From the UHGV virus genome UHGV-1366437: a DNA stretch of 39,224 bases; one strand, written 5' to 3'. Source of the DNA: a virus. The position numbers and the translations under genes are program-made. Below the pieces are notes generated by a model. The model searched no databases and was not told the origin of the DNA. It saw only the letters and a program-made list of their open reading frames with translations. Below are positions 1 to 39,224 of this stretch, in pieces (position 1 is the stretch's first letter; each line of letters starts with the position of its first letter).

Positions 1-2
1 AA

Positions 3-37
3 AGAAAAGCCCGCAAGCGATTAACTTGCGGGCTTTA
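3..37 (-). terminator. Rho-independent terminator hairpin after the tRNA fragment; its shape would also work on the plus strand
   Basis: Perfect 11-bp inverted repeat AAGCCCGCAAG / CTTGCGGGCTT around a 6-nt loop. On the minus strand it is followed by TTTTCTTT, and on the plus strand by TTTATTT. Confidence 0.6.
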
Positions 38-39
38 TT

Positions 40-89
40 TGGTGGAGCATAGCGGGTTCGAACCGCTGACCTCTTCAATGCCATTGAAG
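40..89 (-). tRNA. Partial tRNA: the 3' ~50 nt (anticodon stem to CCA) of a tRNA-Ala(GGC)-like gene; likely the duplicated att core (attR-type copy)
   Basis: The minus strand reads CTTCA-ATGGCAT-TGAAG (anticodon arm, U33, anticodon GGC), AGGTC variable loop, AGCGG-TTCGAAC-CCGCT T-arm, ATGCTCC acceptor 3' strand with U70 (the Ala G3:U70 identity position), discriminator A and CCA. The sequence upstream (91-135) is AT-rich and cannot form the D-arm or the 5' acceptor strand, so the gene is truncated. Confidence 0.6.
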
Positions 90-160: not shown

Positions 161-3100
161 TCTCTTGCATTTTTCATCTCTTTCCTTATTTGCGCCTTCA
201 GTTCTTTTCTATCCTTAGCATCATCCTGTATCCCGAGATTGTCCAACAACCCAACAGTAAATTTCGATAGATTAGCAAATGTTGATCCCATAAGTCCAGT
301 TGCGTAAATTGTCCCGCCCAATTTCGTCGCGCCAATCATAGTCTTCGACGCCACGGCCCCGGCAATGCCGCCGCTCTTCACAACATTGGCTCCAGCCTTG
401 GCATAGTCAATCCATGAGTCTTCCTTGTCGTCATTTGCCATTTTCCATATTTTGTTCAATGCCCTCATGGCTCCGACCGGATTAAACAAGGCATTCCCGG
501 TCCCGCCAAATCGTTGTTCAACGCCAGCGGCCCAATTTAATGCTTCACTGATGCCTCCCAAAAATGGGAGAGCATTTGCCGGACCAAGTAAAATACCAAG
601 CATATAGTCTTCCCATTCCGGCATGCCCGGCTCATCGTCATTAAACCAATCGATTGCAAAAGCAATCATCTGATTCAACAAACCCGATATAAACCATGAA
701 GCTCCGGCTCTCCCCATCTGCTTCCAGGCATCAATCTTCTTGCCTTGCCTCATAAGCATCCTTCCCTCTTCCAGGTACATAATTGAACGGGCCGCCGATT
801 TTATGGCATCATTCCCCATAAACGTAAATACTTGAGACCATGTCCCGGACAATAATGATCTGGTCCATGGGTCGATCGGAGCGGCGCTAACAGCAAGGCC
901 GTATTCCACATCATTGCGTGCTGCTTCATTCGCCTGATCTTCAATCTGCCTCTCGCTTAAACGCTCCCTTTCTGGAGCTCTTTTATTTTCTTCTTCAATC
1001 CTCTTCTTGTATTCCAACACCTTGGAATCATATACAGCCGCGAAGGAAAGAACATTTGCCCCTGCGTCCACATATTCCATGGGAACCATTCCCATTTGCA
1101 CCTGCCGCAGCAATTCGGGATAATGCATTCCGGATGGCGTAGACATCGCCTCAGTTGCCATCTTGATATCAAACCGTCCATCCCTGGCTCCATTTACACG
1201 GCGCTTGAATATATTGCTCTTCCAGAGCCTCGCAATGGTCTTATTGGAACGCCCTGTTAAAACACTCCCCATAGACCCAATCCATGCGACCGGAGAAACA
1301 CCAGGAGCCACAGCCCCATTGGCTATTGCCTCCAGCTGACGGATAACTGTATTCACATTGCCCGACAAGAGCCCTAATGCCTGGGGTCCCATGCATGCCT
1401 GCATCATTGCAAAATCAGATTTTAAGCGTCCGGAATCTTTCATTCCTGCATTCTCAAGCATTTTGATTCTGTCAATAAGTGCACTATAAAAAGATTCGCC
1501 GGCATTTAACTTGATCGCATCAGATACCTCTTTCCTTCGCAGAAGCGTCTTGGCATTATTGAGAGTTTCCGCAGTACATATCCATGTATTTGTTTCCGTC
1601 ATGTGCCTCAAATAAACCTCCGTGGCGCTCATTGTTAGATCAGGTTTGGCATTATGTCGAATTCGAGACATCAGGAAACGATTGAATCCCCCAAACATGC
1701 CCGACGGTGTTCCGCCGGCAGGCTTATCATCTTTGTCGCTCTTCAGGGTTTCTGCTACATCAAACTGCCCCGGCCAATAATTTTCCTCAGAAGCAAAAGG
1801 AACGCCAAACATTTTTTCATACACAGGAGCTATTCCCTTGTCGCGGTTCCAGTCCATTTCCCTTCTCATATATTCGCCAAGCTCAAGTACTTCCTTCCCG
1901 CAAAATTTCTCGATCTTTGCAACAACATCATCAGAGAATCCGGCAAGAGCATAATTGAACCTGTATCTTCTTTGCCTCAATCCAAGCAAATCGTTCAATG
2001 CGGACATTTTGCTGGCTACATATTTCTGGCGTTCACCATACGTGACATATTCATATTGCAGTTTTTTATGCCGGTCTCTATCAATCTCTTCCCGGCTCCT
2101 GCCGTTGTATCTTTCCAGGGCATCCCTGATTGCCGCACGTTCCGCCGGGACAAAATCACTTCCCGAAAAATCAGTTTCGACAAACTTCTTTGCATCATCT
2201 ATTGAAATGCTTTTCTTGTGCGCCTCTGCCGGCTTGATCCATATGCCAGTGTCCCGCACCTTTAATGCATCATTCTGCCATCTGTAAAACTCGCGCCCTT
2301 TCTTGCCCGTTATTTTCTTCGCAGCCTTGACAAGCCGATCCTTGATTTCGTGCATCCTTGTATCGACTTGCGTTGATACTGATCCAAGTTCACGGCCAAA
2401 CTCATCAGCGTATCGACTAACCCCCGGTATTGTTTTCAATACTTCAAATAACTGCGGGCCATTTAATGCTGCAGCAAGCATTTTACCCATTGGCACAGGA
2501 GCCCCTCCTGTATGCAATTTGCCTTCGCCATCCTCCCATTCCGCCACCTTCTGTTTTGTCAATGTGTTGCCGCTCTCGGCCTTAATAGTGGATTCCGTAA
2601 TGATCTCATCAGCGATTTTGTCAATACGTTCCTTACGATCATCAAGAACCTTTTTCCATCGTTCCTTCCCGGATGAAACAAAATCAAGAAGCACATTAAC
2701 CGCAGTACTCAGCTCATCAATGGAAGCTTCTTGAATATTTCCAAACGTCTTGAGTCGCAGTATTTCCGTGTCTATCTCATCCATTTGACGGTTTCTATCC
2801 GATGCGTCCAGCCTGGAATCAGCGGAAATATTATTCTGTTGCTCCATCAAGTCGGCAATAGCCCCCTGCATCTGGCTCCCATCAAGATCCATATACTTTT
2901 TTATTCTCATCAGGATAGCCTGATCTTCGGCTCCCATTTTTCGAGACACCCCATATTTCTCGGTCTTTTTATTGACTACACTCAGATTTCCGTCCGCAAT
3001 TCGCCTCAACGACTCTCGATATTTATCGGCTGCATACTCCTCAATCTTTTCATCCACTCTGTCCAGGAAGCGGCGAAAAAGCACATCGGCCTTCTCTTCC

Positions 3101-7050: not shown

Positions 7051-9166
7051 GTTCTGCTTCTTTCTCTAGCGGCGGAAGCAGAGAGGGATCATCAGGATCC
7101 ATGAGATCCCCATACGGCATTCCTGCTGGATCAATGGGCACGAGTCCGGCATCCGCCCCCTTTAAGCGATCATCATCGCTATTAATGATCCCAACCTTCT
7201 TGTATCCGGGAGGCATGTTCCTGTTCTTCGGTATTGTAATGACGGCTCCATTTAGCGAAGGCTTGGATCCATTAGTATAACACCTCTCATTGGCTTCAAG
7301 TGTTCCGAAAGAAATCTGTCCATTCACAAGACTTTTATCCACGCCAACAATACGGGTTTTAATCCTGTACCCATCTGATGTAGTCATCGTAATTTCAGCT
7401 CCGGATACGGCATCTTCCAATTTCACCTTACCAGATGCGACATCGTTTCTAACGGACTCCGGCAGGCTCATTGCAATATCAGGAGAAACAAGAACTCCCT
7501 TCGATTGGACATTCTCGTTAATTTTCGTGTATTTCATATCAATAGACGCAGTACGTGCGGCATAAGATTTTGCCGCTTCCATCATAGCGTCATTCTCCAA
7601 GTCAATAGACGATTTTGCATACTGCCGGCTCCGTTCGCGCCCCCATCGCATATAAGCCAGACTCTTTTGCTGTTCATCCCGGTTCCCGAAATTTTGCACG
7701 GTAACATGAGAAAAATATTTTCCTGTTCTGGCACCAATCAATTCCCGGATCTTCTTATCCTGCATGGCAGGAGAAGCCATTCTTCCTTCGGTTGTTTGCC
7801 GCCATTCCCTGAATTTTACATCAACCCATTGTTCATTTTCGTATGCCTCTTGTTCAGAAAGCATATATCTGTTGAAAAGAACAGGATTCCCTGCAGCATC
7901 CTTCCGTTTCTCTCCTTTTTCATCCATCAGAGGTACTCTTTCCCCATCCTTGTATCTCATTAAAAGAGTTCCGCCATTATCCTTATATGGAGAATAGTTC
8001 TTGTTGAGATTTCCTGATTCTCTCGCTATCCGAAGAAGCCCGGTAACGTCAATATCAGGATGTTCAGGATCCACATCCTTCATTCCATTAATAATATTTC
8101 CAATATCCTTTTCACTCAAATTCAACCCTTTCCATCTAGTCGTAAACTGCCCCGCCCAATCTTCAAATTCCGGGTTTGGCTTTCCATTTGGGAGAATTGG
8201 ATCCGGGGCGGCATTGGCTTCATAACGGGCTTTTCTTTGCATGATAGGATAAGCGAAGTCCATTCTTCCGGATGCCTGGAGCATGAGAATATTTGCATCT
8301 CCAATCCTGATAAATCCATTATCAACCCCATCCCTGACCATCTCAGGAGTCAATTTGCCGCTCTTGTTGTCCTTATAGATCTTCTCTTCATTTGCTTTTC
8401 TGTATTGCGCAAGGCTGGATTCCAGAACATTCCTTTGCTGTAATGTCAAATAAGTCAGATCACTAGGATCATTTAGTCGTTTTGCTGCTTCTTGGGGGGA
8501 TATATTAATGAGATCTCTCATGCCATTAAATTCTTTCATTCCATTTATTTCCCAAATTTGAGCCTGTTTTTCACCTTCCGTTAGAGTCGGATTTGACTTT
8601 GCAGCTTCAACAGAGGCATCATAATTTCCCTGTTTGATGTACATATCTGTCAGGGCGGCGGCATTTCTCCCCGCGACCCGAATCTTCCCGTCCTGCACAC
8701 CCTTGGCGGTATTGATAAGCAATGCCTTAGCGTCCTCCTCCTGCTGGAATCCCTCAAACCGGGCGATCAGCATCTCATCATTAAACTTCGGCTTCAGCTC
8801 CCTGATTCTGGCAGCCGCCTCATCTGCCCACTTCAAGTGCTTGTCGAACGCAAAAGGCTCCGCCGCAATCTTCTCCTGGAGCTGGGCATTAATGTCATTG
8901 ACTCTGATTTTGTATCCAGACGCAGCTCCATCGTCTTCAATCTTGTTAATCTTCTCAATTTGATCGCCCGCTTCCTGCTGAAGAAACGCCATAGCCTGGG
9001 ATGCGGTACTAAGAGAATTCGCCGCCGCTCCCGCTGCCATGCCTCCGTATCCTGGGTTAGCCTGGTTGCCAAGTCGTCCGTCCGCCGGCCTGTAATAGGG
9101 GATTTGTGCCATAGTTTTATCTTTGTGTGAATTGTTGCGCCGCAATAGAGCCAATCTGTCCTCCAA
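7022..9166 (-). CDS. Internal virion protein, gp15-like (714 aa; alternative start at 9112)
   Basis: Size and position parallel T7 gp15 (747 aa), between the gp14-like gene and the giant gene. No catalytic motif seen. Confidence 0.4.
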   Translation of the reverse strand: MEDRLALLRRNNSHKDKTMAQIPYYRPADGRLGNQANPGYGGMAAGAAANSLSTASQAMAFLQQEAGDQIEKINKIEDDGAASGYKIRVNDINAQLQEKIAAEPFAFDKHLKWADEAAARIRELKPKFNDEMLIARFEGFQQEEDAKALLINTAKGVQDGKIRVAGRNAAALTDMYIKQGNYDASVEAAKSNPTLTEGEKQAQIWEINGMKEFNGMRDLINISPQEAAKRLNDPSDLTYLTLQQRNVLESSLAQYRKANEEKIYKDNKSGKLTPEMVRDGVDNGFIRIGDANILMLQASGRMDFAYPIMQRKARYEANAAPDPILPNGKPNPEFEDWAGQFTTRWKGLNLSEKDIGNIINGMKDVDPEHPDIDVTGLLRIARESGNLNKNYSPYKDNGGTLLMRYKDGERVPLMDEKGEKRKDAAGNPVLFNRYMLSEQEAYENEQWVDVKFREWRQTTEGRMASPAMQDKKIRELIGARTGKYFSHVTVQNFGNRDEQQKSLAYMRWGRERSRQYAKSSIDLENDAMMEAAKSYAARTASIDMKYTKINENVQSKGVLVSPDIAMSLPESVRNDVASGKVKLEDAVSGAEITMTTSDGYRIKTRIVGVDKSLVNGQISFGTLEANERCYTNGSKPSLNGAVITIPKNRNMPPGYKKVGIINSDDDRLKGADAGLVPIDPAGMPYGDLMDPDDPSLLPPLEKEAELAQQMSDFQ

Positions 9167-9686
9167 TAGGTCCGCCTATCAGCGTGCCGCCAACCTTTGC
9201 CGCCGAATTAATCGCGGAGCTCAAGACACCCCACTTGGCAGCCTTCCTTGTCTGTCGTGCCTCCCACCTCTTAAGGTTCGCCTGGTAATTGATTATCTGC
9301 GCCTCCTGTACAGCCTTGCCCGCCGCATCATTGATTGCCACCTCCGCCTGTTGAGCAAGAGAAAGCCCCTGCCTGCCTCCCGAACCGTCCGCCGTCATGC
9401 CCCGCGCTCCGAGAGCCGCCGAAGCCTGGCTAACGGTATCGGCCTGATTGTGCCTTGCCCGCCGTCCATTGATGCCCGAATCAATCAGCGTCTGCTTCGC
9501 CGCTAGATCCAGACTGGCCGCGTTCTGATCAAGCACTCGTGCCTGACCCATGGCAGACTGATAGCCCATGATGCCGGAAAGGGCTGACGAGCCGACCGAC
9601 AGGACGCCAGCCGTGTTCCCAATCGCATTCAGGGTTTCTTTGTCGGTTATGCCTTCCAGCCCGAAGTTTTCTTTGCTAAAGCTCAT
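9117..9686 (-). CDS. Internal virion protein, gp14-like (189 aa)
   Basis: Ala/Gly/Gln-rich, 189 aa, start overlaps the upstream gene as ATGA. Matches T7 gp14 in position and size. Confidence 0.35.
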   Translation of the reverse strand: MSFSKENFGLEGITDKETLNAIGNTAGVLSVGSSALSGIMGYQSAMGQARVLDQNAASLDLAAKQTLIDSGINGRRARHNQADTVSQASAALGARGMTADGSGGRQGLSLAQQAEVAINDAAGKAVQEAQIINYQANLKRWEARQTRKAAKWGVLSSAINSAAKVGGTLIGGPIGGQIGSIAAQQFTQR

Positions 9687-11866
9687 AGTTTGATTCCGTA
9701 TAGTTCAAATTTGCCATTACCCGAAACGCGGATACCCGCCCGATGCGAGTAGTCCCAGGACGGCATACCCCAGAACGCCGTCCATCCGTTCATTTCTGAA
9801 ACAGGAATCCCCGGTGAATACCACTCCACGCCGTCATTGCTGACCGTCACCACATTGTCGCCATCGCGCCGGACATAAGCCATCAGCTTGCTATCCTGCT
9901 TCTTCACGCCCATGGATTGCACGAACTCAAGATCGTTCGTCACCATCTCGGAAACGTAATCCGAAGAGCCATCCACAAAAGGATTGTCCGGCTTGATTGC
10001 CTCGAGGCACCACGTCCCCCGGTCGACCAGCATCCATATCTCATCGGCCAAACCATCCGCCCGCGGCAGGATAGCAATGCTCTTGATGGAGCCGGCAGTA
10101 TCGACTCTCCCCCATGCCTTGACCTGCTGGAGCATATTATACGTCAAACAAGCACACGTCCCATCTTCGAGAAGGCACCACAGAACCGGGTAGGGGCTCC
10201 GCTGATACGCCACTTCAACAACCCCAGCCTGAAGGATGTGATCCGCCAGCAAAGTAAGATCCTCGGCCATGTAGCCGTCAGCCTCCAAACTATACGCATA
10301 CTGCCTGACGTGCCGCTTGTCCCTCTGCACATACACAAGGCCGTTTTCGATTCCTGCAGCATCAACATCAGCCGCACTCCCAACGTGAGACTGCACCGAG
10401 AAGAAAGCCCCCTCGGCATCAATAATCCCCTTGTCACCTGTGAGAGTCCATTCCGCGTCAGTCGTGCCAACAGCAAGCCCGCGCTGAGGAGAAATCCAGC
10501 AAATCATGTTCTGCCCGGAAGAAGCCATCGTGAAGCGAAGGGAAGCATCAGCTCCATCCTCGTCAGCGTCAAAATTGTAGTAGTCACCAACTGCGCTTGC
10601 CCAAACAGTCTGCGGCTGCTTGGCCGTACCGCCAAACCAGATGCGGTCCTGGTGGAAGCCAATGGCGCGGGGGTAACCGTTCTTGTGGCCGAATGCCTCC
10701 AAAGACCAGTCATGAGTTTCCCACGAGCCGGAAAGCCCGATGTAATTAGAGACGACGAACCCGGCAAATCCAGGCCTCTTTGAAGTGATTTTGCAGTATT
10801 GCTTTAAGTCGAAGCCGTCCACGTCAAGTTGTGGATTTCCCACATTGTTCCCGCTCGACCAGCAAATCACAAGGCCAATCAAGCATAGATCATCCTCCAG
10901 GCCGGAAAGCGAATAATTACGCATATTTCCATCTGAGGATTCCATGTATTTCATCGTTTCCCAATCCCAATCGAAATACCCGTTAAGCACCCCGGCACCC
11001 TCTTTTTGCCGGACGATATACCAGCCTGCTTTCCACTCGCCCGCCGTTGTTACAGACCATGCAGTTTTACAAGGTAGAGGCTGTTTTCCGGTGACAAACG
11101 CCCCCCAGCGGAAATAATTACCATACGATCCCGGATCATTAGACTCTCCCTTGTAACTCGGATCCCAGTCCTGGATGCATGTATAATAATTGATTGTCGA
11201 TCCGCTGCTGTACTGGACAGACATGCCTCTCAAAACAATCTGGTTAAGAGGAGTTGAGCTGGACTGGTCATAAGGCTTGGGATGAATCAGAGACGTCCCC
11301 GGAAGCCTGCGTGTAACTCGGACAATGTCGCCAACCTGGACGTCATCCACGCCAGACCACGACAATTCCCCATTGATAGCCTTCATGAGATCGTCTTGAT
11401 AGAGAGACGTTTCCTCCGGGATATTATCCCAAGCAATTTTCTCAAGCTGCCAGTTGCTATCCGCATACCGCGTCAGCATATAAGGCGGCATGTCGGGACT
11501 CACCAGGTACACTACGTCATTGATCTGCTGATACCGGATCCGGCGCAAAGCAGCCTGACTCCAACCACTGAACAGACTGGTAGCCGTCGTGTTGACCAAC
11601 GCGCCATTCTTGAACACCCGTACATGAGTGTTAGACAATTCAACAATCGCCGTGTCTCCGCTGTTATAGACAAACGGAATAATCCTGCTGCCAGTCTTCG
11701 CATCGGCCATGTGCTTCAGGCCGCGGCGACGCCGAAGACCTCCCGTTTGATCAATATCGAAATTGACGAGCGACGAACAAGCCTGATGGAACTTGTCGAA
11801 ATCCGCACGAAGCACCGCCGAAGGCGAAATCTCCCCGTAAAAAGCATTGCGTATCATAGAGACCAA
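9683..11866 (-). CDS. Tail tubular (nozzle) protein B-like, gp12-like, 727 aa
   Basis: Large beta-rich protein immediately after the gp11-like gene. Size is close to T7 gp12 (794 aa). Assigned by synteny. Confidence 0.4.
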   Translation of the reverse strand: MVSMIRNAFYGEISPSAVLRADFDKFHQACSSLVNFDIDQTGGLRRRRGLKHMADAKTGSRIIPFVYNSGDTAIVELSNTHVRVFKNGALVNTTATSLFSGWSQAALRRIRYQQINDVVYLVSPDMPPYMLTRYADSNWQLEKIAWDNIPEETSLYQDDLMKAINGELSWSGVDDVQVGDIVRVTRRLPGTSLIHPKPYDQSSSTPLNQIVLRGMSVQYSSGSTINYYTCIQDWDPSYKGESNDPGSYGNYFRWGAFVTGKQPLPCKTAWSVTTAGEWKAGWYIVRQKEGAGVLNGYFDWDWETMKYMESSDGNMRNYSLSGLEDDLCLIGLVICWSSGNNVGNPQLDVDGFDLKQYCKITSKRPGFAGFVVSNYIGLSGSWETHDWSLEAFGHKNGYPRAIGFHQDRIWFGGTAKQPQTVWASAVGDYYNFDADEDGADASLRFTMASSGQNMICWISPQRGLAVGTTDAEWTLTGDKGIIDAEGAFFSVQSHVGSAADVDAAGIENGLVYVQRDKRHVRQYAYSLEADGYMAEDLTLLADHILQAGVVEVAYQRSPYPVLWCLLEDGTCACLTYNMLQQVKAWGRVDTAGSIKSIAILPRADGLADEIWMLVDRGTWCLEAIKPDNPFVDGSSDYVSEMVTNDLEFVQSMGVKKQDSKLMAYVRRDGDNVVTVSNDGVEWYSPGIPVSEMNGWTAFWGMPSWDYSHRAGIRVSGNGKFELYGIKL

Positions 11867-12480: not shown

Positions 12481-12503
12481 ACAACAATAATACCACCAAA
12501 GAA

Positions 12504-12947
12504 TTATCGAACCGAGTAGGCAATCAGCACATTCGTGACCGCGCCAGCCGTAGGGGCCGTAGCCGCCGTCACCGTAGCCGTCACCCAGTACCCGCCGTCA
12601 TGCTTCACCGGAGCCTTAACGCCCCCGGTAAACGCCACATCGTGAGCAGCCTTGATGTCCAACGCCGTCGAATAGGCGTCATCGTCAACACCGTCGCCGA
12701 TCTTGACACTCAGGGCAGTACCCAGAGCGGCACCCTGCACGCGGCAGAGATGCGGCAGCACCACGGCATTACCGGGCAGATAGACCAGTTTCACCGTGTC
12801 ATCCGCGGCTTCGGCGCCAGTCATCTCAACAACGGCAGTAGCCATGCACACAACCGGAGACACGTCCGTACTGTTCGCCGTCATCGGCCCCGTACCGTCC
12901 ATGCTCTGGTTCTGCAGCTTCCCGACTTTGGAAAAATATTCAGCCAT
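12504..12947 (-). CDS. Hypothetical virion protein (147 aa), possibly capsid-associated or decoration
   Basis: Ala/Thr/Val-rich small ORF 29 nt downstream of the capsid gene. Confidence 0.4.
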   Translation of the reverse strand: MAEYFSKVGKLQNQSMDGTGPMTANSTDVSPVVCMATAVVEMTGAEAADDTVKLVYLPGNAVVLPHLCRVQGAALGTALSVKIGDGVDDDAYSTALDIKAAHDVAFTGGVKAPVKHDGGYWVTATVTAATAPTAGAVTNVLIAYSVR

Positions 12948-32369: not shown

Positions 32370-32595
32370 CTTCTTCGGCATAAACCAAGAGCTTCAGCTT
32401 TCCGTCCTCGGAAACAGCGATGACGGAAAGCTTGCCGTTATAAGGATCCCATAATACCTCTGGATCCTCTGTTTCGTATTTCACCTTGATTGGAGTTCCG
32501 CATATCAGCAGAACAGCTTCTCCTTTTTTCCTTAGTTCATCAATCAACGTAAGTGAATTGACGAATCGGTAATCAATTTGTTTATTTTCTTTCAT
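32332..32595 (-). CDS. Hypothetical protein (87 aa)
   Basis: ORF only. Confidence 0.35.
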   Translation of the reverse strand: MKENKQIDYRFVNSLTLIDELRKKGEAVLLICGTPIKVKYETEDPEVLWDPYNGKLSVIAVSEDGKLKLLVYAEEVTLASSQSSQEI

Positions 32596-32779
32596 GATGA
32601 TTTTCTGGGGTTTGCTTGTTCAGTTGCTTCTTGAGAAGAGGCATTCCCAGTTGAACGGAAAGCCTCAAGAGCGCCGAGTACGGCACCCCAGTTGCCTTGG
32701 ATAAGGCCCTAAGTTCTTGATCGTCTTCCAAAAGGAGACGTGCTTGTATCGATCGTGATAGTGTTGCCATGCTTTTCAT
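32582..32779 (-). CDS. Small putative DNA-binding protein (65 aa)
   Basis: ELRALSKATGVPYSALLRLSVQLG is helix-turn-helix-like. It is the first gene to one side of the repeat-rich divergent region. Confidence 0.3.
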   Translation of the reverse strand: MKSMATLSRSIQARLLLEDDQELRALSKATGVPYSALLRLSVQLGMPLLKKQLNKQTPENHHERK

Positions 32780-32866
32780 TGTGCTGTTTTAAAGTACGGT
32801 GTCAATATTCTTTTGTGCTGCTGAACAGCACGTTTTCGTTTTGCCTTGTGCTGTAAGTCATTACAG
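32779..32866. promoter_or_regulatory. Divergent control region with three phased TTGTGCTG repeats (32779, 32813, 32846; spacing 34 and 33 bp) and two palindromes (GTGCTGctgaaCAGCAC at 32815-32831; CTGTAAgtcaTTACAG at 32851-32866)
   Basis: Direct reading of the sequence between the minus-strand 32582..32779 gene and the plus-strand RHH gene. Confidence 0.45.
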
Positions 32867-32880
32867 TGTATATTTTTTTT

Positions 32881-33096
32881 ATGCGCCCTATCGACAAAGA
32901 GAACCCCGCGACGATCTCGCTCCAGATACGATTTACAAAAAAACAAATTGAAGAGATCGACGAAGTCGCCGAGCAATTTGAAATGAGCCGCTCGGAAATC
33001 ATCCGCCTCTCCTGTTCTTCCGGCTTGGTAGCACTCAAAAAACTTACTCCGGAAGGGCTTAAAAAAGCCGTTTCCAGATTGCTGACAGAAGAGTAG
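32881..33096 (+). CDS. Ribbon-helix-helix (CopG/Arc-like) DNA-binding protein
   Basis: ISLQIRFTKKQIEEIDEVAEQFEMSRSEIIRLS is a beta-strand followed by two helices, with the conserved SRSEIIR segment. Confidence 0.55.
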   Translation: MRPIDKENPATISLQIRFTKKQIEEIDEVAEQFEMSRSEIIRLSCSSGLVALKKLTPEGLKKAVSRLLTEE

Positions 33097-33132
33097 ATCA
33101 TACAGTCTCCTATTGGTTTTCCGTTACGCCTA

Positions 33133-33342
33133 TCACTTTTCCGGTTTCGTCTCCGTATAGCTCACACGCGGAGTAATCGGATGATACTTCGGCAGCGTCC
33201 TCAACTTCTTGAGCAGCTCCCGGCTTCCCGTGCGTTGCCCCTTGAGCACCAAACGCAAATGCGTCGTACTCACATCGACGGCCCGCGCCGCGCGTGAAAT
33301 CGTATAGCCGCGCCCAGCTAAATATTCTGGTGTTAGCGTCAT
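33133..33342 (-). CDS. Cro-like HTH protein (about 70 aa), first gene of the minus-strand lytic operon
   Basis: MTLTPEYLAGRGYTISRAARAVDVSTTHLRLVLKGQR HTH. It is divergent from the cI-like gene across the operator region. Confidence 0.5.
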   Translation of the reverse strand: MTLTPEYLAGRGYTISRAARAVDVSTTHLRLVLKGQRTGSRELLKKLRTLPKYHPITPRVSYTETKPEK

Positions 33343-33376
33343 GATTTTCTTCCCTTTCTCATTCGTTTTATGTAGT

Positions 33377-33413
33377 TTCTCAGATTGCGTGACGGTCACA
33401 CCGTGCCAATGGA
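33377..33413. promoter_or_regulatory. Operator region of the cI/cro switch: 11-bp perfect palindrome GTGACgGTCAC nested in the 8-bp inverted repeat CGTGACGG ... CCGTCACG (three GTGAC half-sites)
   Basis: Direct reading of the 105-bp divergent intergenic region. Confidence 0.55.
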
Positions 33414-33447
33414 TAACCGTCACGAGAAAACAACTATAGAATTTTCT

Positions 33448-33849
33448 ATGAACGAGCAAGGAAAAACTACAGATATTTCTATATATCTAGCTCGACTCAA
33501 CTCTCTTATTCGTGAGAAGTCGTTAAGTCAAAGTGAATTGGAACGAATTACAGGCATTCGTCAAGCGACGATCTCAGACTATACTAAAGGAAAATCTATA
33601 CCGTCAGCTGAACGTTTTTTCCTAATTTCATCTGCTCTTGGTGTCTCCATGGACTACCTCTGGGGTGTCTCTGATGTCCCCATCCAAGCTACCGACACAG
33701 CAAACATTCAGGAATCCGAATGGCAGCAGAGAGCTCAAACAGCAGAACAGAAGCTCAAACACCTCAAAAGCCTTCTCTCCGACGTTGGCTCTGACATCGA
33801 AGCCCTCGGCGGAACCATAGGGAAACTCCTCAAATTCATCTCCGAATAA
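33448..33849 (+). CDS. cI-like XRE-family HTH repressor (no peptidase domain)
   Basis: LSQSELERITGIRQATISDYTKGKSIPSAERFFLISSALGVSMDYLWG is a classic XRE HTH. The C-terminal part is a coiled coil. Confidence 0.6.
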   Translation: MNEQGKTTDISIYLARLNSLIREKSLSQSELERITGIRQATISDYTKGKSIPSAERFFLISSALGVSMDYLWGVSDVPIQATDTANIQESEWQQRAQTAEQKLKHLKSLLSDVGSDIEALGGTIGKLLKFISE

Positions 33850-33851
33850 TC

Positions 33852-34679
33852 ATGACCATAAAAGAAGCTATTGCACTTGTATTCAAATTGAAGAACCAAT
33901 CGTCTCTTCATGTGAATGAAATTACAGAATACATTAAATCAAATATTGATGAGTATAAAGACCAGGAATCTACGGATATCCAAAAAAGGGTGAATGCATT
34001 TCTTGCTGCCAGCGTCAAAAGCAAAACAAACAAAATCTACAAAAAAACGATCAACCCCAAAACTGGACGTCCCAAAAAAGGAGTCTATTCTATTGCTCCT
34101 CCTAAAAAGATAAAATCCTCAATCCGCCCAGACAAAAACTCACAAACTGCTCTCCCTCTATTTCCTGCACAGCAACAGCCTCAAGCATCATCCTTCAATG
34201 AAACAGGGATAACGGCAAATACCGGAAAACTATATTTCGGCAAAGCAGGAGAATTTGCAGTAGTCAGCGAATTATTATTCAGAGGCTACAGTGCCAGCAT
34301 CATGTCCGTTGATGAAGGAATTGACATCACAGCTTCAAAAAATGACAAATTCTTTTTCATCCAAGTAAAGACAACCCTGTTTGCTGACAACAAAATATCC
34401 GTCACAATAAAGCCAAACAACTTTGTCAACAACACAAATACAAATATTTTTTACACCATTGTTTTCAGATACCTGACAAACAGCGCTTACATCAATCGCT
34501 ACATAATTTTAAGTTCCATTGATTTAGAACGACTCATCAGAAAAGGCGCCATCAGTTATCCAAACGGTAATGTATCCATTAAAATCAGAATGAATAACGG
34601 GAAACTCGAATTCTACAACGGAAACATCACCGAAGAAGTTGATTACTATTATTTAGACAACTTCGACATGATCAAATAA
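33852..34679 (+). CDS. HARE-HTH + AT-hook + Mrr-like PD-(D/E)xK nuclease (275 aa); candidate lysogen-expressed defence nuclease
   Basis: N-terminal MTIKEAIALVFKLKNQSSLHVNEITEYIK... fits the HARE-HTH winged helix. KTGRPKKG is an AT-hook. The C-terminus GEFAVVSELLF...SVDEGIDITASKNDKFFFIQVKTT matches the Mrr_cat pattern (D-G-I-D and I-Q-x-K). The ATG is 3 nt after the cI stop. Local GC is about 33%. Confidence 0.5.
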   Translation: MTIKEAIALVFKLKNQSSLHVNEITEYIKSNIDEYKDQESTDIQKRVNAFLAASVKSKTNKIYKKTINPKTGRPKKGVYSIAPPKKIKSSIRPDKNSQTALPLFPAQQQPQASSFNETGITANTGKLYFGKAGEFAVVSELLFRGYSASIMSVDEGIDITASKNDKFFFIQVKTTLFADNKISVTIKPNNFVNNTNTNIFYTIVFRYLTNSAYINRYIILSSIDLERLIRKGAISYPNGNVSIKIRMNNGKLEFYNGNITEEVDYYYLDNFDMIK

Positions 34680-34736
34680 CGATATAATTTTCTGAATAAA
34701 TCTTATTAAAAAAATATTCGACCCAAAAAATAAATA

Positions 34737-36194
34737 ATGGAACATTCTAAACAAATTGCAGTAAATCGTCTTTATCTTGATGTCCGGAATCCACGTATTC
34801 CATATGAAAAAAATATGCATGAGAACAAACTAATAGATACTCTAATTGCAGACGATCCTAAAGATTTTTTAGAAACGATGCAACGCATCCAGCGGGAAGG
34901 ATATATTCCATCAAAACCAATTGTTGCACTTAAAGTCGGAAGACGTTTTAAAGTCATGGATGGAAATCGACGAACAGCAATTATGAAGTTATTATTAGGC
35001 TATGTTGATGTTAAAAAATTGAAAAATATTTCTCCATCAATACGAGAAACCATACAAAAAACAAGTGAAATCTGGAAAGATAAGAATAAAAAAATTCCTC
35101 TTTGCGAAGCATCGTCAGAAAAAGACATACAAGCAATAGCCTTTATTCAGATGGAGCATGTTAAAAATGCTCCAGGATCAGGCAAGGACTGGGGTATTCT
35201 CATGAGACATCGATATGATAATCCAAATAGTCCTTATATTGTATTAATCGACAATTTTCTTAATTATTGCAAACAGAAAATATCTGTTGAGCTTTTTCAC
35301 AAATGGACAACAGATTATCCCCTAACATTGTTACAGGAAACCCTGAAAAGAGGTCAACTGGAATCTGTCCTTAATCTGAACATAGATGAGCTGAGTAAAC
35401 TGTATCCTCATAATCTTGATGTAGATCTAGTTGATAACATAACAAAGCTGCTCATGAAATTAGGGAAAGCAGATGATAAGGATTATCTTACATACTCAGA
35501 TGTCCGCGATGGATCATTCCCGGGAAAGCTCACAACTGAGTATCACCTCTACCCTGTTGAAGATGTAGATAAGCAGGAAAGGTTAAGCAAGATGAATTTT
35601 GAACAACAAATTCGGAATTCATCTGAAAATCAAAATCCTTCATCTCCATCTACCGATCAAACTTCTCCTCGCAAATCTAATAATAAAAAAATAAACCTTA
35701 TTCCAGAATGCATAGATAATATAAAAAAATCTTGTTGTAAATCTGAATGCTATAAATCAATCAGATGTATTGAAGAACTCAGTAAAATTACAAAAAAGAA
35801 TTCTTTTCTCCCTAATGCATCAGCTTTCCTACTCCGATGTATATTAGAATATGCAGTCAAACACGCAATACGAACAATGGGACTTGAACTATATCCACTT
35901 GGAAAATTAAAAAATTATTGTAGAGAATTGTATCGCAGAGATTTTTTCAAAAAACAATTCCCTCAAACCCATGAATTTTTGAATCGTGTAGCTAATACAG
36001 AAAACTCTGGATCTGCCCGTGATCAACTCAATAATTTTGTTCATTGTGATAGTTGGCAACCAAGCCAGGAAGACATCACAACTTTGATCGAGAATATAAC
36101 TCCCCATCTAGTCACTCTTTTTGAGTCCGTCACACCACAGGCACAAGCTCCAAGCACGGAGTCGCCGGCATCTTCACCTTGTTCCCAAGAATAA
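34737..36194 (+). CDS. ParB N-terminal-domain (ParB/Srx fold) protein with a 380-aa Cys-containing C-terminal extension (485 aa)
   Basis: DVRNPRIPYEKN ... IPSKPIVALKVGRRFKVMDGNRRTAIMKLL aligns with ParBc boxes (NPR and GxRRxxA). Very AT-rich. Its 3' end overlaps the convergent methyltransferase gene by about 65 nt. Confidence 0.45.
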   Translation: MEHSKQIAVNRLYLDVRNPRIPYEKNMHENKLIDTLIADDPKDFLETMQRIQREGYIPSKPIVALKVGRRFKVMDGNRRTAIMKLLLGYVDVKKLKNISPSIRETIQKTSEIWKDKNKKIPLCEASSEKDIQAIAFIQMEHVKNAPGSGKDWGILMRHRYDNPNSPYIVLIDNFLNYCKQKISVELFHKWTTDYPLTLLQETLKRGQLESVLNLNIDELSKLYPHNLDVDLVDNITKLLMKLGKADDKDYLTYSDVRDGSFPGKLTTEYHLYPVEDVDKQERLSKMNFEQQIRNSSENQNPSSPSTDQTSPRKSNNKKINLIPECIDNIKKSCCKSECYKSIRCIEELSKITKKNSFLPNASAFLLRCILEYAVKHAIRTMGLELYPLGKLKNYCRELYRRDFFKKQFPQTHEFLNRVANTENSGSARDQLNNFVHCDSWQPSQEDITTLIENITPHLVTLFESVTPQAQAPSTESPASSPCSQE

Positions 36195-37041
36195 AAACTT
36201 CTTTGCCCATGACTTTAGTGCGTGCGCTATACTGTAAATTGAATATGAACTGACGAAATCCTGCATAAAGATCGCGAATCGCTTCTTCAGTATCATACGA
36301 TACAATCCAATGTTCATTGGATAATACCTCTTTGATCACTTGAGCTACATTGGCATGATCATTGTGTCCATAGGAATTTAAGTACAATTGCTGTCCCTTA
36401 TGGTAATATGGAGGATCGCAATAGACAAAGCACTTTCCTTGTGACATCAAAGGAATACGTTGGATAAAATTGATCGCATCTTCATGGTAAAGCAAGATAC
36501 GATCTGAAAATGATGCATAGGATCGGGCTAATTTCGCCAATCTCTCCCGATAAAATCGAGCATCCATTTTATAATTACCTTTCTGTTCAAGTCCGCCAAT
36601 AACCCCACCACTGATTACTCCAGAAAAATTCGTACGATTTAAATAAAAAAAAGCAAACCCTACATCTTCGCGAGAATAATTCTCAAACCTTTGTATTATG
36701 GTTCTCATCTTTTTCCACTCATCAACATTCAAAACAGCGGAATCGATCCGATGAGCAAATCTTTCTGGATCATCTCTGAGAGATTCCCAAAACATCAATA
36801 GTTGAGGACACTTGTCATTGAGATGGACTCTAGCTACCTTTCCAGAAAATAAAAGTTCCATAGCAACTCCTGCTCCGCCCGCATAGGGTTCTACATAATC
36901 ACAACCTTCCAAACCATTCTCCGCAATCAACGACGCCACAAATGGGGCTAATCTCTGCTTTCCTCCCGGATAACGTAACAGGGTTTTTATATTGCGGCCT
37001 ACCATATTTTTCCTATGTATCCTACACACATCTACCTCCAT
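36130..37041 (-). CDS. Dam-family N6-adenine DNA methyltransferase (D12 class); probable true start at 37005 (MVGRNIKTLLRYPGGK)
   Basis: LRYPGGK, EPYAGGAGV (FxGxG-type) and CDPPYY motifs in the alpha-class order typical of Dam. Confidence 0.7.
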   Translation of the reverse strand: MEVDVCRIHRKNMVGRNIKTLLRYPGGKQRLAPFVASLIAENGLEGCDYVEPYAGGAGVAMELLFSGKVARVHLNDKCPQLLMFWESLRDDPERFAHRIDSAVLNVDEWKKMRTIIQRFENYSREDVGFAFFYLNRTNFSGVISGGVIGGLEQKGNYKMDARFYRERLAKLARSYASFSDRILLYHEDAINFIQRIPLMSQGKCFVYCDPPYYHKGQQLYLNSYGHNDHANVAQVIKEVLSNEHWIVSYDTEEAIRDLYAGFRQFIFNLQYSARTKVMGKEVFILGNKVKMPATPCLELVPVV

Positions 37042-37188
37042 AAGTCAAATGTATCATGGAGAAATTGGTTCTAGGATTTGGAAGACACAAAAAAGCGACC
37101 GGGGTGGCCTGCTAAGCAGGCGGCGAGTATCGCGCAGAATGCGTGACTGCGTAAACAGAAACAGGTCAGCCCTCCCTCCGAGAGATCA

Positions 37189-37217
37189 CTTGACAAGAGT
37201 ACAGAAAACTTGTACGT
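37189..37217 (+). promoter_or_regulatory. Putative toxin-antitoxin promoter (TTGACA-17-TACGTT) overlapping an inverted repeat GTACAgaaaactTGTAC (likely YefM operator)
   Basis: Perfect -35 hexamer. E. coli yefM-yoeB operators are built on TGTACA-core palindromes, and the same core is present here. Confidence 0.45.
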
Positions 37218-37224
37218 TTTATTC

Positions 37225-37509
37225 ATGACCCCATTATCCCTTTCATACAGTGAAGCCCGGCAGCATCTGGCCGATACCATCAAGACCTGCGTCGACGATT
37301 CCGTGCCCGTCATCATCAAATCGCGACAGCGAGAAGTAGTCATGATCCCCCGTGAAGAATACGACTCGTGGATGGAAACAATCCACCAGCTAGACACCCC
37401 GTCCAACATACGCCACCTGGACCAGTCCCTCGAAGAAAAACGCCGTGGGGAAACCATCGTCATGACAGCGGATGACCTCATGAACTTCATGAACACCCCT
37501 GGAGCATGA
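37225..37509 (+). CDS. yefM: YefM/Phd-family antitoxin
   Basis: MTPLSLSYSEARQHLADTIKTCVDDSVPVIIKSRQREVVMIPREEYDSWMETIHQL is a typical Phd/YefM N-domain. Its stop overlaps the toxin start as ATGA. Confidence 0.7.
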   Translation: MTPLSLSYSEARQHLADTIKTCVDDSVPVIIKSRQREVVMIPREEYDSWMETIHQLDTPSNIRHLDQSLEEKRRGETIVMTADDLMNFMNTPGA

Positions 37510-37769
37510 AACTTGAATTCTCAAAAACAGCCCTGTCAGATCTCGCCTTTTGGAAAAAGGCAGATCGCAAGGCTGCGCAGAAAGTAACCGCCCTATTGCT
37601 GGAAATACTTGAAACCCCCTATGCCGGCAAAGGCAAACCCGAGCAGCTTGTCGGCAACCTCTCCGGTTACTGGTCCCGTCGCATCAACACCAAAGACCGC
37701 ATCATCTATTCCGTAGACGAAGAAACGGCAACCATCTTCATCCGCTCCCTCCGCAAACACTACGAATAG
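37506..37769 (+). CDS. yoeB: YoeB/Txe-family (RelE-fold) toxin
   Basis: KLEFSKTALSDLAFWKK ... PYAGKGKPEQLVGNLSGYWSRRINTKDRIIYSV ... RKHY closely follows the YoeB consensus. Confidence 0.75.
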   Translation: MKLEFSKTALSDLAFWKKADRKAAQKVTALLLEILETPYAGKGKPEQLVGNLSGYWSRRINTKDRIIYSVDEETATIFIRSLRKHYE

Positions 37770-37829
37770 CCCTCACCCCTGGAACTGCACCCGCTTGGCA
37801 GATTCCAGACTTTAATCCAAGAAGTCCTA

Positions 37830-37854
37830 CCATTTTGTGACATCCAACAAAATG
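37830..37854. terminator. Convergent stem-loop between yoeB and int (CCATTTTG-9nt-CAAAATGG)
   Basis: 8-bp perfect stem. There is no strong T-run. Confidence 0.3.
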
Positions 37855-37857
37855 GTC

Positions 37858-39078
37858 TCACATCTCCTCCAACCCAATTTGCCAATACTCCTCGGCAGCC
37901 TGCTTTGAGACAGCAGCTCTGTAATGCTTGAACAGCATATCCGAGCCCTTGGCATGCCCCATATCTTCACGGAGACGGTCAATATTCGGATCAATTGCCA
38001 GAGAATACGACGCAAACGAATGGCGCGCTGCATCGGACCTGTTCTGAAGGCCGGCCGCCTTTCGCACAATCTTCGCCTTCCTCACCCAATTCGTCGGCCT
38101 CAAAAGACCTTTCCGATCTGATTCCGGAACAGCCTCAAAAAACCTTCTCAAATTATCCTTGATCGTCACATGCCTCACCTCGCGAGTCTTCGCGATCGAT
38201 GGAGGAACATTAATAAACCCCTCATCCAACAGCACGTGATCCCACGTCAACTTCTGGAACTCCTCCGGACGAATCCCTGCGAACAACAACACAGCAAACG
38301 GAAGCAAAGCATCCGTACAATCCAACTTGTAAATCGCTTCAACATGGCCATCCTCACCAGCCATCGGGTGCCCCTCCTCATCCTTGTAAGACCTGCACGA
38401 AGCCAGAAGACGTTTGACTTCCTCCACCGTGAACACATCCACGCTATCTGAAGAAACAATCTTTCTCTTCTCAATCTGACTCCACGGAGACCTGGAAATG
38501 ATCCCCTGCTTCACCGCCCAGGTAAACGCCGGACTCAACACCCCCAGAGCAGAATTGAAATACGTCGCACTCTTAAAAGAATCGGCCAGCCACACCCTGA
38601 TATCATGCGCCTCAAGATCGGCCACATTCCTATTGCCAAACACCTCAACAAAACGTGAAGAATAATGGCGCCAATTTCCCTCATACTTCACCGACCACCC
38701 CCTGTCAGCAGACACCACATCCCTATACTTCGTCATCAGTTCATTTACAGACAGGCCGGCCATCCTGGCCTTCTGCTGCTCAATACCAATCCTTACCGCC
38801 TCAAGAAGAGACAAACCCAACCCAGAATCTTTTAGTAACCCATATGCATCCTTGGCTTCACGTATTTGAGTGGGAGCCAGTACATTATTATCCGATAGCT
38901 CGCCTTGTGAAAAGCGATCGCGTAGCATCATCTGATCGCGCGCTGCTTCATCACGAGTCTCATAATAGAGAGCCGTAATTTTGCCACTTGCGGAAAACCT
39001 TGCCGGAAGCCAGATCCTATACAGAGTCTTTTTGCCGCGCTTCGTTTTGTGGATTGCAAACTTGAGAGACCGTCCCAT
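37858..39078 (-). CDS. int: Tyrosine site-specific integrase (406 aa) with an N-terminal arm-binding-type domain
   Basis: C-terminal catalytic motifs ARHSFASY (HxxR), LLFAGIRPEE (R box) and HAKGSDMLFKHY (His...Tyr). The Lys-rich N-terminus resembles the arm-DNA-binding domains of Bacteroidota-type integrases. Confidence 0.85.
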   Translation of the reverse strand: MGRSLKFAIHKTKRGKKTLYRIWLPARFSASGKITALYYETRDEAARDQMMLRDRFSQGELSDNNVLAPTQIREAKDAYGLLKDSGLGLSLLEAVRIGIEQQKARMAGLSVNELMTKYRDVVSADRGWSVKYEGNWRHYSSRFVEVFGNRNVADLEAHDIRVWLADSFKSATYFNSALGVLSPAFTWAVKQGIISRSPWSQIEKRKIVSSDSVDVFTVEEVKRLLASCRSYKDEEGHPMAGEDGHVEAIYKLDCTDALLPFAVLLFAGIRPEEFQKLTWDHVLLDEGFINVPPSIAKTREVRHVTIKDNLRRFFEAVPESDRKGLLRPTNWVRKAKIVRKAAGLQNRSDAARHSFASYSLAIDPNIDRLREDMGHAKGSDMLFKHYRAAVSKQAAEEYWQIGLEEM

Positions 39079-39089
39079 AGGCGAATTCT

Positions 39090-39112
39090 TTGTCTTTTAT
39101 GTCTATTATTTT
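39090..39112. repeat. Right copy of the ~24-bp direct repeat (putative integrase arm-type site), 12 nt upstream of the int start codon
   Basis: TTGTCTTTTATGTCTATTATTTT matches 136..160 in the same orientation. Confidence 0.45.
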
Positions 39113-39224
39113 CAGAAATTCAACGGAAAAAGCCTCAAATCATGAAAATGACACACCTTTTTGAAAATCGCCGCAAACTCCTCAGAAGGCATTATTTCTC
39201 TTCATAACTCATTGAAAATAAGCA

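Follow-up and report, generated by a model that had tools for sequence, protein, structure and literature searches.

Near one end of the virus genome UHGV-1366437 (39,224 nucleotides [nt], the whole of which we refer to as the window), three genes lie between a cI-like repressor gene and an integrase gene, at positions 33852 to 37041: a nuclease gene (gene A), a gene for a ParB-domain protein (gene B), and a convergent methyltransferase gene. A preliminary description took them for a lysogen-expressed defense island of an architecture that had no name. We find that the interval probably consists of two independent cargo modules downstream of the repressor gene in a tRNA-Ala-integrating Akkermansia prophage. 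Gene B and the methyltransferase gene, judged by sequence, constitute PD-lambda-5, an anti-phage system that is already named, and gene A is a separate, independently mobile cargo gene and not the partner of B. The main claim, that of a new system without a name, does not hold, and an apparent new defense architecture resolves into two identifiable parts; the observation behind the claim is real, however, and its reading of the domains was largely good. Gene coordinates and order are as first described, and the motifs that had been quoted (GRPKKG, VDEGIDI...FIQVK, NPR, and VMDGNRRTAIMKL) are all present in the translations of the open reading frame (ORF) map (Table 1).

Both proteins carry the assignment to PD-lambda-5. 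B matches the PADLOC models for PD-Lambda-5_A (PDLC03997 at 1.3e-35 and PDLC03998, over the full length, at 4.6e-32), with residues 1 to 463 aligned to positions 1 to 465 of the 466 in PDLC03998; its 485 aa fall within the range for such proteins (about 430 to 580 aa), and searches of B against Pfam and NCBIfam return nothing. The methyltransferase matches the model for PD-Lambda-5_B (PDLC04018) at 1.9e-102, with residues 18 to 294 on positions 4 to 278 of 291. It also matches Pfam MethyltransfD12 (1.1e-19), contains a DPPY motif (VYCDPPYY), and is accordingly classed here as a predicted D12-class N6-adenine DNA enzyme; its earlier designation as Dam does not stand, the score against TIGR00571 (dam) being 79 bits with a cut-off of 115, and the modification role proposed for it does, the protein with which it goes being B. 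Its start is probably M13 (position 37005, giving 291 amino acids [aa]), because homology to a 74%-identical cassette in another contig (L011, see below) ends exactly at 37005 and most gene callers agree.

PD-lambda-5 was obtained by functional selection from Escherichia coli ECOR7, gives broad protection, and was called a compacted prophage restriction-modification plus abortive infection (RM+Abi) system (Vassallo et al. 2022). The supplementary tables list it as “ParB/HEPN, methyltransferase” (PMC9519451 Table S), and HHsearch of the prototype assigned ParBc to protein A (96.4%, residues 6 to 89) and MethyltransfD12 to protein B (99.9%) (PMC9519451). The window shares with it the prophage location and the two-gene unit of a ~485-aa ParB/HEPN protein and a ~295-aa D12 N6-adenine methyltransferase, in a cassette of about 2.3 to 2.4 kb, compared to 2,461 bp in ECOR7. 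It differs in that its host belongs to the Verrucomicrobiota (Akkermansia) and that its methyltransferase gene is convergent, with a 65-nt overlap. Protection has been demonstrated for the E. coli ECOR7 prototype only. With this assignment, a divergent PD-lambda-5 is placed in the prophages of a prominent human gut commensal.

The pair also behaves as an inherited unit. Checked contig by contig, a B-family gene abuts a ~295-aa D12 methyltransferase gene in six of six independent contexts (the window, L011, L012, L013, L100, and L102), and in the five contexts other than the window, where HMM scans confirm both the B and the methyltransferase families, an A-type gene is absent. The B protein of L011 is 71% identical to that of the window and its gene has the same convergent 65-nt overlap with a D12 methyltransferase gene (L011 9334-9398); nucleotide homology spans 34737-37005 at 74%, from the ATG of B to M13 of the methyltransferase. 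This cassette lies 600 nt from the same tRNA-Ala, and the integrase is absent along with A. In L012, L013, L100, and L102, relatives of B at 24 to 26% identity are followed directly by a co-directional ~295-aa D12 methyltransferase.

The surroundings of L011 merit a remark of their own: at 7268-10900 of this contig (Logan SRR27226211), the cassette stands alone, with no phage genes around it; its neighbors are a Pyr_excise gene on one side and the tRNA-Ala(GGC) attachment site on the other, and it looks like a remnant or mini-island left after prophage decay. A more remote, three-gene relative occurs in P2-like phages (L094 2980-6016 in Escherichia phage vB_EcoM-12474III and L095 3001-5968 in Pseudomonas phage vB_PaeM-D14A), where it either occupies the P2 hotspot that follows the portal gene or lies downstream of a gene for a putative transcriptional regulator. 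Its first gene product (~360 aa) has only the ParB-like N-terminal domain of PD-Lambda-5_A in common and also matches PADLOC PDC-M38A; there follow a 300- to 330-aa protein without a family match and a convergent C5-cytosine methyltransferase, and the trio appears to be a split, 5-methylcytosine-based cousin of PD-lambda-5.

We collected the family of B by exhaustive HMMER search (369 representatives) and aligned 76 full-length members, in which N77 and R79 (of the GNRR box), H141, W152, K340, E347, R367, and H436 are invariant. Profile searches with the alignments of both families, A and B, returned only spurious matches among PDB chains, and fold comparison was needed. The predicted structure of B combines a ParB/Srx-like N-terminal part with a C-terminal HEPN domain and ends in a disordered tail, and its N-terminal half structurally resembles ParB/Noc. 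The ParB/Srx-type domain recognized at the outset is thereby borne out, by predicted structure, fold comparison, and the ParBc match of the prototype, whereas the 380 aa that were then taken as unknown sequence contain a helical region and the HEPN domain. A DUF4145-type R-x3-N-x3-H motif (ARDQLNNFVH) was tried and dropped because its R varies across the B family, N432 and H436 being conserved. The predicted domain plan and the invariant residues could guide the first mechanistic work on PD-lambda-5.

Among known defense proteins, GmrSD, BrxU, and SspE resemble B in joining an N-terminal domain of the ParB/Srx superfamily to a nuclease output. Their output is HNH/DUF1524, however, and that of B is HEPN (neither HNH nor DUF1524 was found in B with Pfam); PADLOC gives no match to these systems, and GmrSD and BrxU are type IV systems without a cognate methyltransferase, which B has.

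Gene A encodes a predicted solitary DNA endonuclease of known architecture, belonging to a class that was defined computationally. It has an N-terminal HARE-HTH winged helix and a PD-(D/E)xK fold with intact catalytic residues, the family-invariant positions G130, G133, E134, E140, D154, G156, D158, and Q171-V-K173 making up an intact D...QxK nuclease motif. In Pfam, A itself has sub-threshold matches only (Forkhead, 0.0019; PDDEXK_5, 0.017), but when its 52 full-length homologs were scanned singly, PDDEXK_5 was found in 27, HARE-HTH in 8 (best, 5.6e-19), and DUF4365 in 7. The Mrr families are nearly absent from the same set (Mrr_cat in a single homolog at 0.009, Mrr_cat_2 in five at 0.0037 or weaker, and Mrr_N in none), and A matches none of the three. 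The winged helix and the nuclease domain with its Mrr-like D...QxK motif had thus been read correctly, but the AT-hook had not: GRPKKG forms the turn between wing strands 63-67 and 74-81 (block means of the predicted local distance difference test, 88 to 98), the segment T-G-R-P-K-K-G has no leading R, and GRP varies in homologs (e.g., KKGGYKKG), and it is not an AT-hook because it sits in the wing hairpin and GRP is not conserved.

In comparative genomics, HARE-HTH domains in fusion with restriction endonuclease domains have been described as reading modified DNA in restriction-modification (R-M) systems (Iyer et al. 2016, PMC4738411; PMC10853773). A shares the N-terminal HARE-HTH and the PD-(D/E)xK nuclease of these fusions (Aravind & Iyer 2012; PMC4738411; PMC10853773), which at the level of the A family are embedded in R-M loci in 40 of 80 cases, but A of the window and its close relatives are solitary, in prophage cargo slots. 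E. coli Mrr offers a second comparison: it too has an N-terminal winged helix and a C-terminal nuclease with the D...QxK variant (D158...Q171-V-K173 in A), and both are solitary, without a methyltransferase. A lacks membership in the Mrr_cat and Mrr_N families, however, and only the motif and the overall plan are common to the two.

That A is independent of PD-lambda-5 follows from where its relatives lie. Two contigs, L001 and L002, carry the A cassette (protein-identical, at 98.6% nt identity over window positions 33816-34702) without B and the methyltransferase. Other close homologs (40 to 52% identity) are found in mobile-element cargo regions, again without B or a methyltransferase of the window type, and have as neighbors an S24 repressor with an Old/AriA-like ATPase, an integrase, Bro-N/ANT, and phage proteins of 2,400 to 2,500 aa; one close homolog lies in a chromosomal region. 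We further examined 80 A-family loci in species-representative genomes, considering neighbors within 6 kb. Nearly all encode the full two-domain protein, and none of the 80 has a B-family or PD-Lambda-5_B-type gene within that distance. Each of the two modules therefore occurs without the other, and the partnership of A and B that had been proposed is not upheld.

Half of these loci (40 of 80) are instead beside type I, II, or III R-M genes, namely, those for HsdM/S (21 loci), HsdR (14), type III Res (5), D12 methyltransferases (5), and N6_N4 methyltransferases (7). As a rule, the A-family gene closes the co-directional series and either abuts hsdR or res or overlaps a D12 methyltransferase gene. 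The D12 methyltransferases encoded directly upstream of some distant A-family genes make up a subfamily of ~360 aa that is not related to the enzyme of the window (E > 0.2). Neither A of the window nor its close relatives have cognate R-M genes next to them, the neighboring methyltransferase belonging to PD-lambda-5, and tblastn of A against the INPHARED phages detected no homolog. What emerges is a family of HARE-HTH/PD-QxK nucleases of ~250 aa, widespread but untouched by experiment and not represented in the PADLOC models, that forms the last gene of type I/III R-M operons in many phyla and solitary mobile-element cargo in Akkermansia-related contigs. We also considered A and the neighboring methyltransferase as a type II R-M pair into which B had been inserted, and we rejected this arrangement because the methyltransferase travels with B and the methyltransferases of A relatives are of a different D12 subfamily.

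Several features of the wider A family were recorded in passing. Genes of ~245 aa end type I (hsdM-hsdS-hsdR-A) and type III operons among L032-L093 (e.g., L034, L058, L083, and L090), especially in Patescibacteria/candidate phyla radiation (CPR) bacteria and Bacteroidota. At five loci (L041, L043, L045, L046, and L052), the A-family gene overlaps the end of the ~360-aa D12 methyltransferase gene, with an additional upstream N6_N4 methyltransferase gene at three of the five, an arrangement that looks like a type II R-M system. Genes for reverse transcriptase, AbiU2, and SNase recur near distant A-family genes. In L003, a 357-aa D12 methyltransferase gene (1231-2304, minus strand) is located 3.7 kb from the chromosomal A homolog (52% identity), with housekeeping-type genes between them, and the two are a possible dispersed R-M pair. 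The methyltransferase is of the same subfamily as those directly preceding distant A-family genes, a subfamily that is extremely widespread and conserved (60 to 67% identity across phyla); a homolog search with it was uninformative, yielding thousands of methylases that are nearly ubiquitous.

Taken together, the two modules suggest the following scheme.

(i) Module 1 is the PD-lambda-5 pair. The D12 methyltransferase would mark the DNA of the lysogen with N6-methyladenine (m6A). B would be the effector, whose ParB/Noc-like half (the invariant GNRR nucleotide-binding box together with the helical DNA-binding region) may load on DNA and read the absence of the m6A mark on incoming DNA. Its HEPN domain, with the invariant R367 and H436, would provide the nuclease output, most likely RNA cleavage, and so stop the infection. 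An abortive outcome or growth arrest would fit the “compact RM + Abi” logic that was put forward for the prototype from E. coli and may confer protection on Akkermansia lysogens.

(ii) Module 2 is gene A. Its winged helix would be a DNA reader, possibly of modified bases, that targets the PD-(D/Q)xK domain through a flexible basic linker, and A may restrict incoming DNA in a type-IV-like manner or in some other way that depends on context. Because its close relatives travel without a methyltransferase, A presumably does not cut ordinary host DNA. Cloning of PD-lambda-5 needed a strain lacking the mrr region, E. coli Mrr being incompatible with the PD-lambda-5 methyltransferase. Whereas Mrr is intolerant of that enzyme, A co-resides with an m6A methyltransferase of this kind and therefore should not recognize its mark; the coexistence of the Mrr-like A with the PD-lambda-5 methyltransferase thus constrains what A can recognize.

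A number of points weigh against this interpretation. On the side of PD-lambda-5, the identity of B to its family outside the Akkermansia-lineage branch (the window and L011) is only 20 to 32%; Pfam ParBc does not match B itself; GmrSD_N (DUF262) is not found on B and matches 2 of 76 relatives (1.2e-4); the HEPN motif of the B family is atypical (N432-x3-H436 and a distant invariant R367, not Rx4-6H); and the pair is convergent in the window/L011 branch but co-directional in the four distant relatives. The mechanism of the system is unpublished, and its sensing and HEPN steps are ones that we infer. On the side of A, no member of the computationally defined class of HARE-HTH-endonuclease fusions has been experimentally characterized, A is absent from the PADLOC models, and the contigs with methyltransferase-less copies of A are short (7.5 kb for L001 and 1.8 kb for L002), with host genomes that are unseen; the host of L001 might have an equivalent methyltransferase at another place in its genome.

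The top structural match of A is, moreover, a homing endonuclease, with Hjc resolvases close behind, and roles for A other than defense have to be considered: a selfish, free-standing homing endonuclease or an Hjc-like structure-specific nuclease for phage recombination or DNA processing. We regard this as unlikely. At half of the 80 family loci, the gene belongs to an R-M operon of type I, II, or III, typically at its end next to hsdR or res; the close relatives are in cargo slots by repressors, integrases, and an Old-like ATPase and not among genes for replication or recombination; a RecT/exonuclease module is already present in another part of the phage; and the INPHARED phages encode no detectable homolog.

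In Akkermansia, a functional link of A to PD-lambda-5 at the local level has to be weighed because the entire cI-to-YoeB block was transferred as a whole to another phage backbone (L008, see below). In such a case, A and PD-lambda-5 would be coupled in the Akkermansia lineage and would make up a layered system of three parts, with expression from the repressor operon; the winged helix of A might, for example, read the PD-lambda-5 N6-adenine mark, with A cutting unmarked invaders and B, through HEPN, as an abortive back-up. We consider this coupling improbable.

We likewise consider improbable the proposal of a single new system with three components, in which A would cut DNA, the ParB-like B would serve in sensing or loading, and the methyltransferase would give self-protection. 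The same joint transfer of the block speaks for it, as do the contiguity of the three genes, their low GC content, and their position downstream of cI; HARE-HTH nucleases have also been reported to work in N6-adenine R-M systems, and at 5 of 80 distant loci, a D12 methyltransferase gene has an A-family gene immediately behind it. The methyltransferase subfamily at those loci, however, differs from the window enzyme, and the prototype PD-lambda-5 works as two genes. The proposal is largely refuted because A on the one hand (in L001 and L002, and at all 80 family loci) and B with the methyltransferase on the other (in L011, L012, L013, L100, and L102) assort independently in both directions, and all co-occurrences of A and B that we found are near-identical copies of one Akkermansia block.

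Finally, that B is a ParB partition or nucleoid-organizing protein and the methyltransferase an orphan phage Dam for anti-restriction or packaging is scarcely credible: the N-terminal half of B is structurally like ParB/Noc, sharing the fold and a GxRR motif with canonical ParB of ParABS, and NCBI labels distant relatives “ParB N-terminal domain-containing protein,” but the element is integrative (an integrase gene and an attachment-site repeat), the window encodes no ParA-type Walker A protein, B has a HEPN domain where ParB has its C-terminal dimerization domain, linkage to the D12 methyltransferase is kept down to 24% identity, and the prototype pair is an experimentally validated defense system. 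A partition role was one of the grounds that the preliminary description had itself named for abandoning its proposal.

The window is a complete integrated prophage, whose first 89 nt recur at 100% identity directly after position 39224 in L006, L007, and L009; in these contigs (12489-12603), the repeat overlaps tRNA-Ala(GGC), yielding attL and attR, and the host genes DAGK_cat, gatA, and gatC lie beyond. We assign the host to Akkermansia because QET93_011475, annotated as a hypothetical protein in Akkermansia sp. N21116, has the same sequence as B (100% identity). Megablast found no match for the region in E. coli genomes and none for half the window in the phage collection. In the N21116 chromosome (L008; CP139035.1, 5870-11085), the block of cI, A, B, methyltransferase, and YefM/YoeB recurs at 96% nt identity in a different prophage, one with a recombination module of the YqaJ type and a different integrase, integrated beside tRNA-Arg(CCT). 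The block being present in a second backbone, the lysogeny/cargo arm thus passes from one phage backbone to another as a single unit.

Contig L001 (Logan SRR29936053, 2075-5421) is the end of a sister prophage with the same integrase, the same YefM/YoeB pair, and a protein-identical A, but a 1.37-kb block with two unrelated genes (84 and 325 aa) stands where 34703-37128 would be. Neither gene has a match in Pfam or PADLOC, the 325-aa gene having a marginal PHROGs match only (0.006), and both are candidate unknown defense genes. The C-terminal half of the repressor is likewise swapped, for a short HTH protein and ORFs of 104 and 176 aa. The slot behaves as an exchangeable cargo hotspot, because L001 swaps both the PD-lambda-5 cassette and the repressor C-terminal half. 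The YefM/YoeB pair, which had been noted beyond the methyltransferase gene and is indeed there, is context only and outside both modules, being kept in L001, which is without PD-lambda-5.

A low-GC cargo slot downstream of the repressor gene and beside int had been recognized from the start, and it is confirmed: the GC content of the interval is 36.5%, and the interval is the lowest-GC stretch of the window, with a minimum elsewhere of 38.8% (1-kb windows). The remainder of the window has 49.0%, however, and not the backbone value of about 55% given previously. The cI stop (TAA, 33847-33849) and the ATG of A are separated by a 2-nt gap, and the A-B spacer is 57 nt with 17.5% GC. No terminator-like site was found on the plus strand between 33850 and 36194, in a promoter/terminator scan that performed at chance level (11 promoter-like sites versus 11.3 expected). 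Co-transcription of A and B with cI is plausible, given the shared strand, the 2-nt gap, and the lack of a plus-strand terminator-like site. The arrangement recalls lambda rexAB in that cargo genes immediately follow the repressor gene, share its strand, and are presumably lysogen-expressed, but there is no similarity in sequence or domains and no match to a Rex model in PADLOC. An Rfam search of 32500-39224 found no family, and a repeat search at the cassette borders found short, chance-level repeats only.

Table 1. Features of the cargo region, with the protein domains of A and B and the bounding prophage elements
Feature	Position	Strand	Details
Attachment-site repeat (attL copy)	1-89		Overlaps 3' part of tRNA-Ala(GGC); bounds prophage
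Cro-like gene	33133-33459	-	Divergent from cI-like repressor gene
cI-like repressor	33385-33849	+	ORF map; Pfam HTH_3 1.2e-13; helical C-terminal part, without S24 peptidase
A cassette	33816-34702	+	blastn versus L001 3165-4052, 98.6% nt; L001/L002 flanks differ on both sides
Gene A	33852-34679	+	275 aa; ORF map
A, HARE-HTH winged helix	33852-34094	+	Residues 1-81
A, disordered basic linker		+	Residues 82-121
A, PD-(D/Q)xK endonuclease domain	34215-34679	+	Residues 122-275
A, family-invariant residues	34251-34253 (E134); 34323-34325 (D158); 34362-34370 (Q171-V-K173)	+	E134, D154, D158, Q171-V-K173
PD-lambda-5 cassette	34703-37128		L001 homology breaks off at 34702, restarts at 37129
Gene B, PD-Lambda-5_A homolog	34737-36194	+	485 aa; ORF map
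B, ParB/Srx-like domain	34737-35111	+	Residues 1-125; N18/R20; G76-N-R-R79 at 34962-34973
B, helical region	35127-35627	+	Residues 131-297
B, disordered linker		+	Residues 298-317
B, HEPN-like helical bundle	35688-36125	+	Residues 318-463; invariant K340, E347, R367, H436 (36042-36044)
Tail-to-tail overlap of B and methyltransferase ORFs	36130-36194		65 nt
Methyltransferase, PD-Lambda-5_B homolog	36130-37041	-	303 aa as ORF; convergent to B
YefM/YoeB toxin-antitoxin pair	37210-37769	+	Pfam PhdYeFM_antitox 2.9e-14, YoeB_toxin 1.6e-24
Tyrosine integrase of prophage (context)	37858-39078	-	Pfam Phage_integrase 3.8e-06

Gene calls differ at two places in this region. Other gene callers start the cI-like repressor at 33409. 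Public calls on identical DNA disagree at 37071-37509, where some give a YefM antitoxin gene on the plus strand (37210-37509) and others a 139-aa ORF on the minus strand (37071-37496); the match to PhdYeFM_antitox (2.9e-14) supports the plus-strand YefM gene as the likely one.

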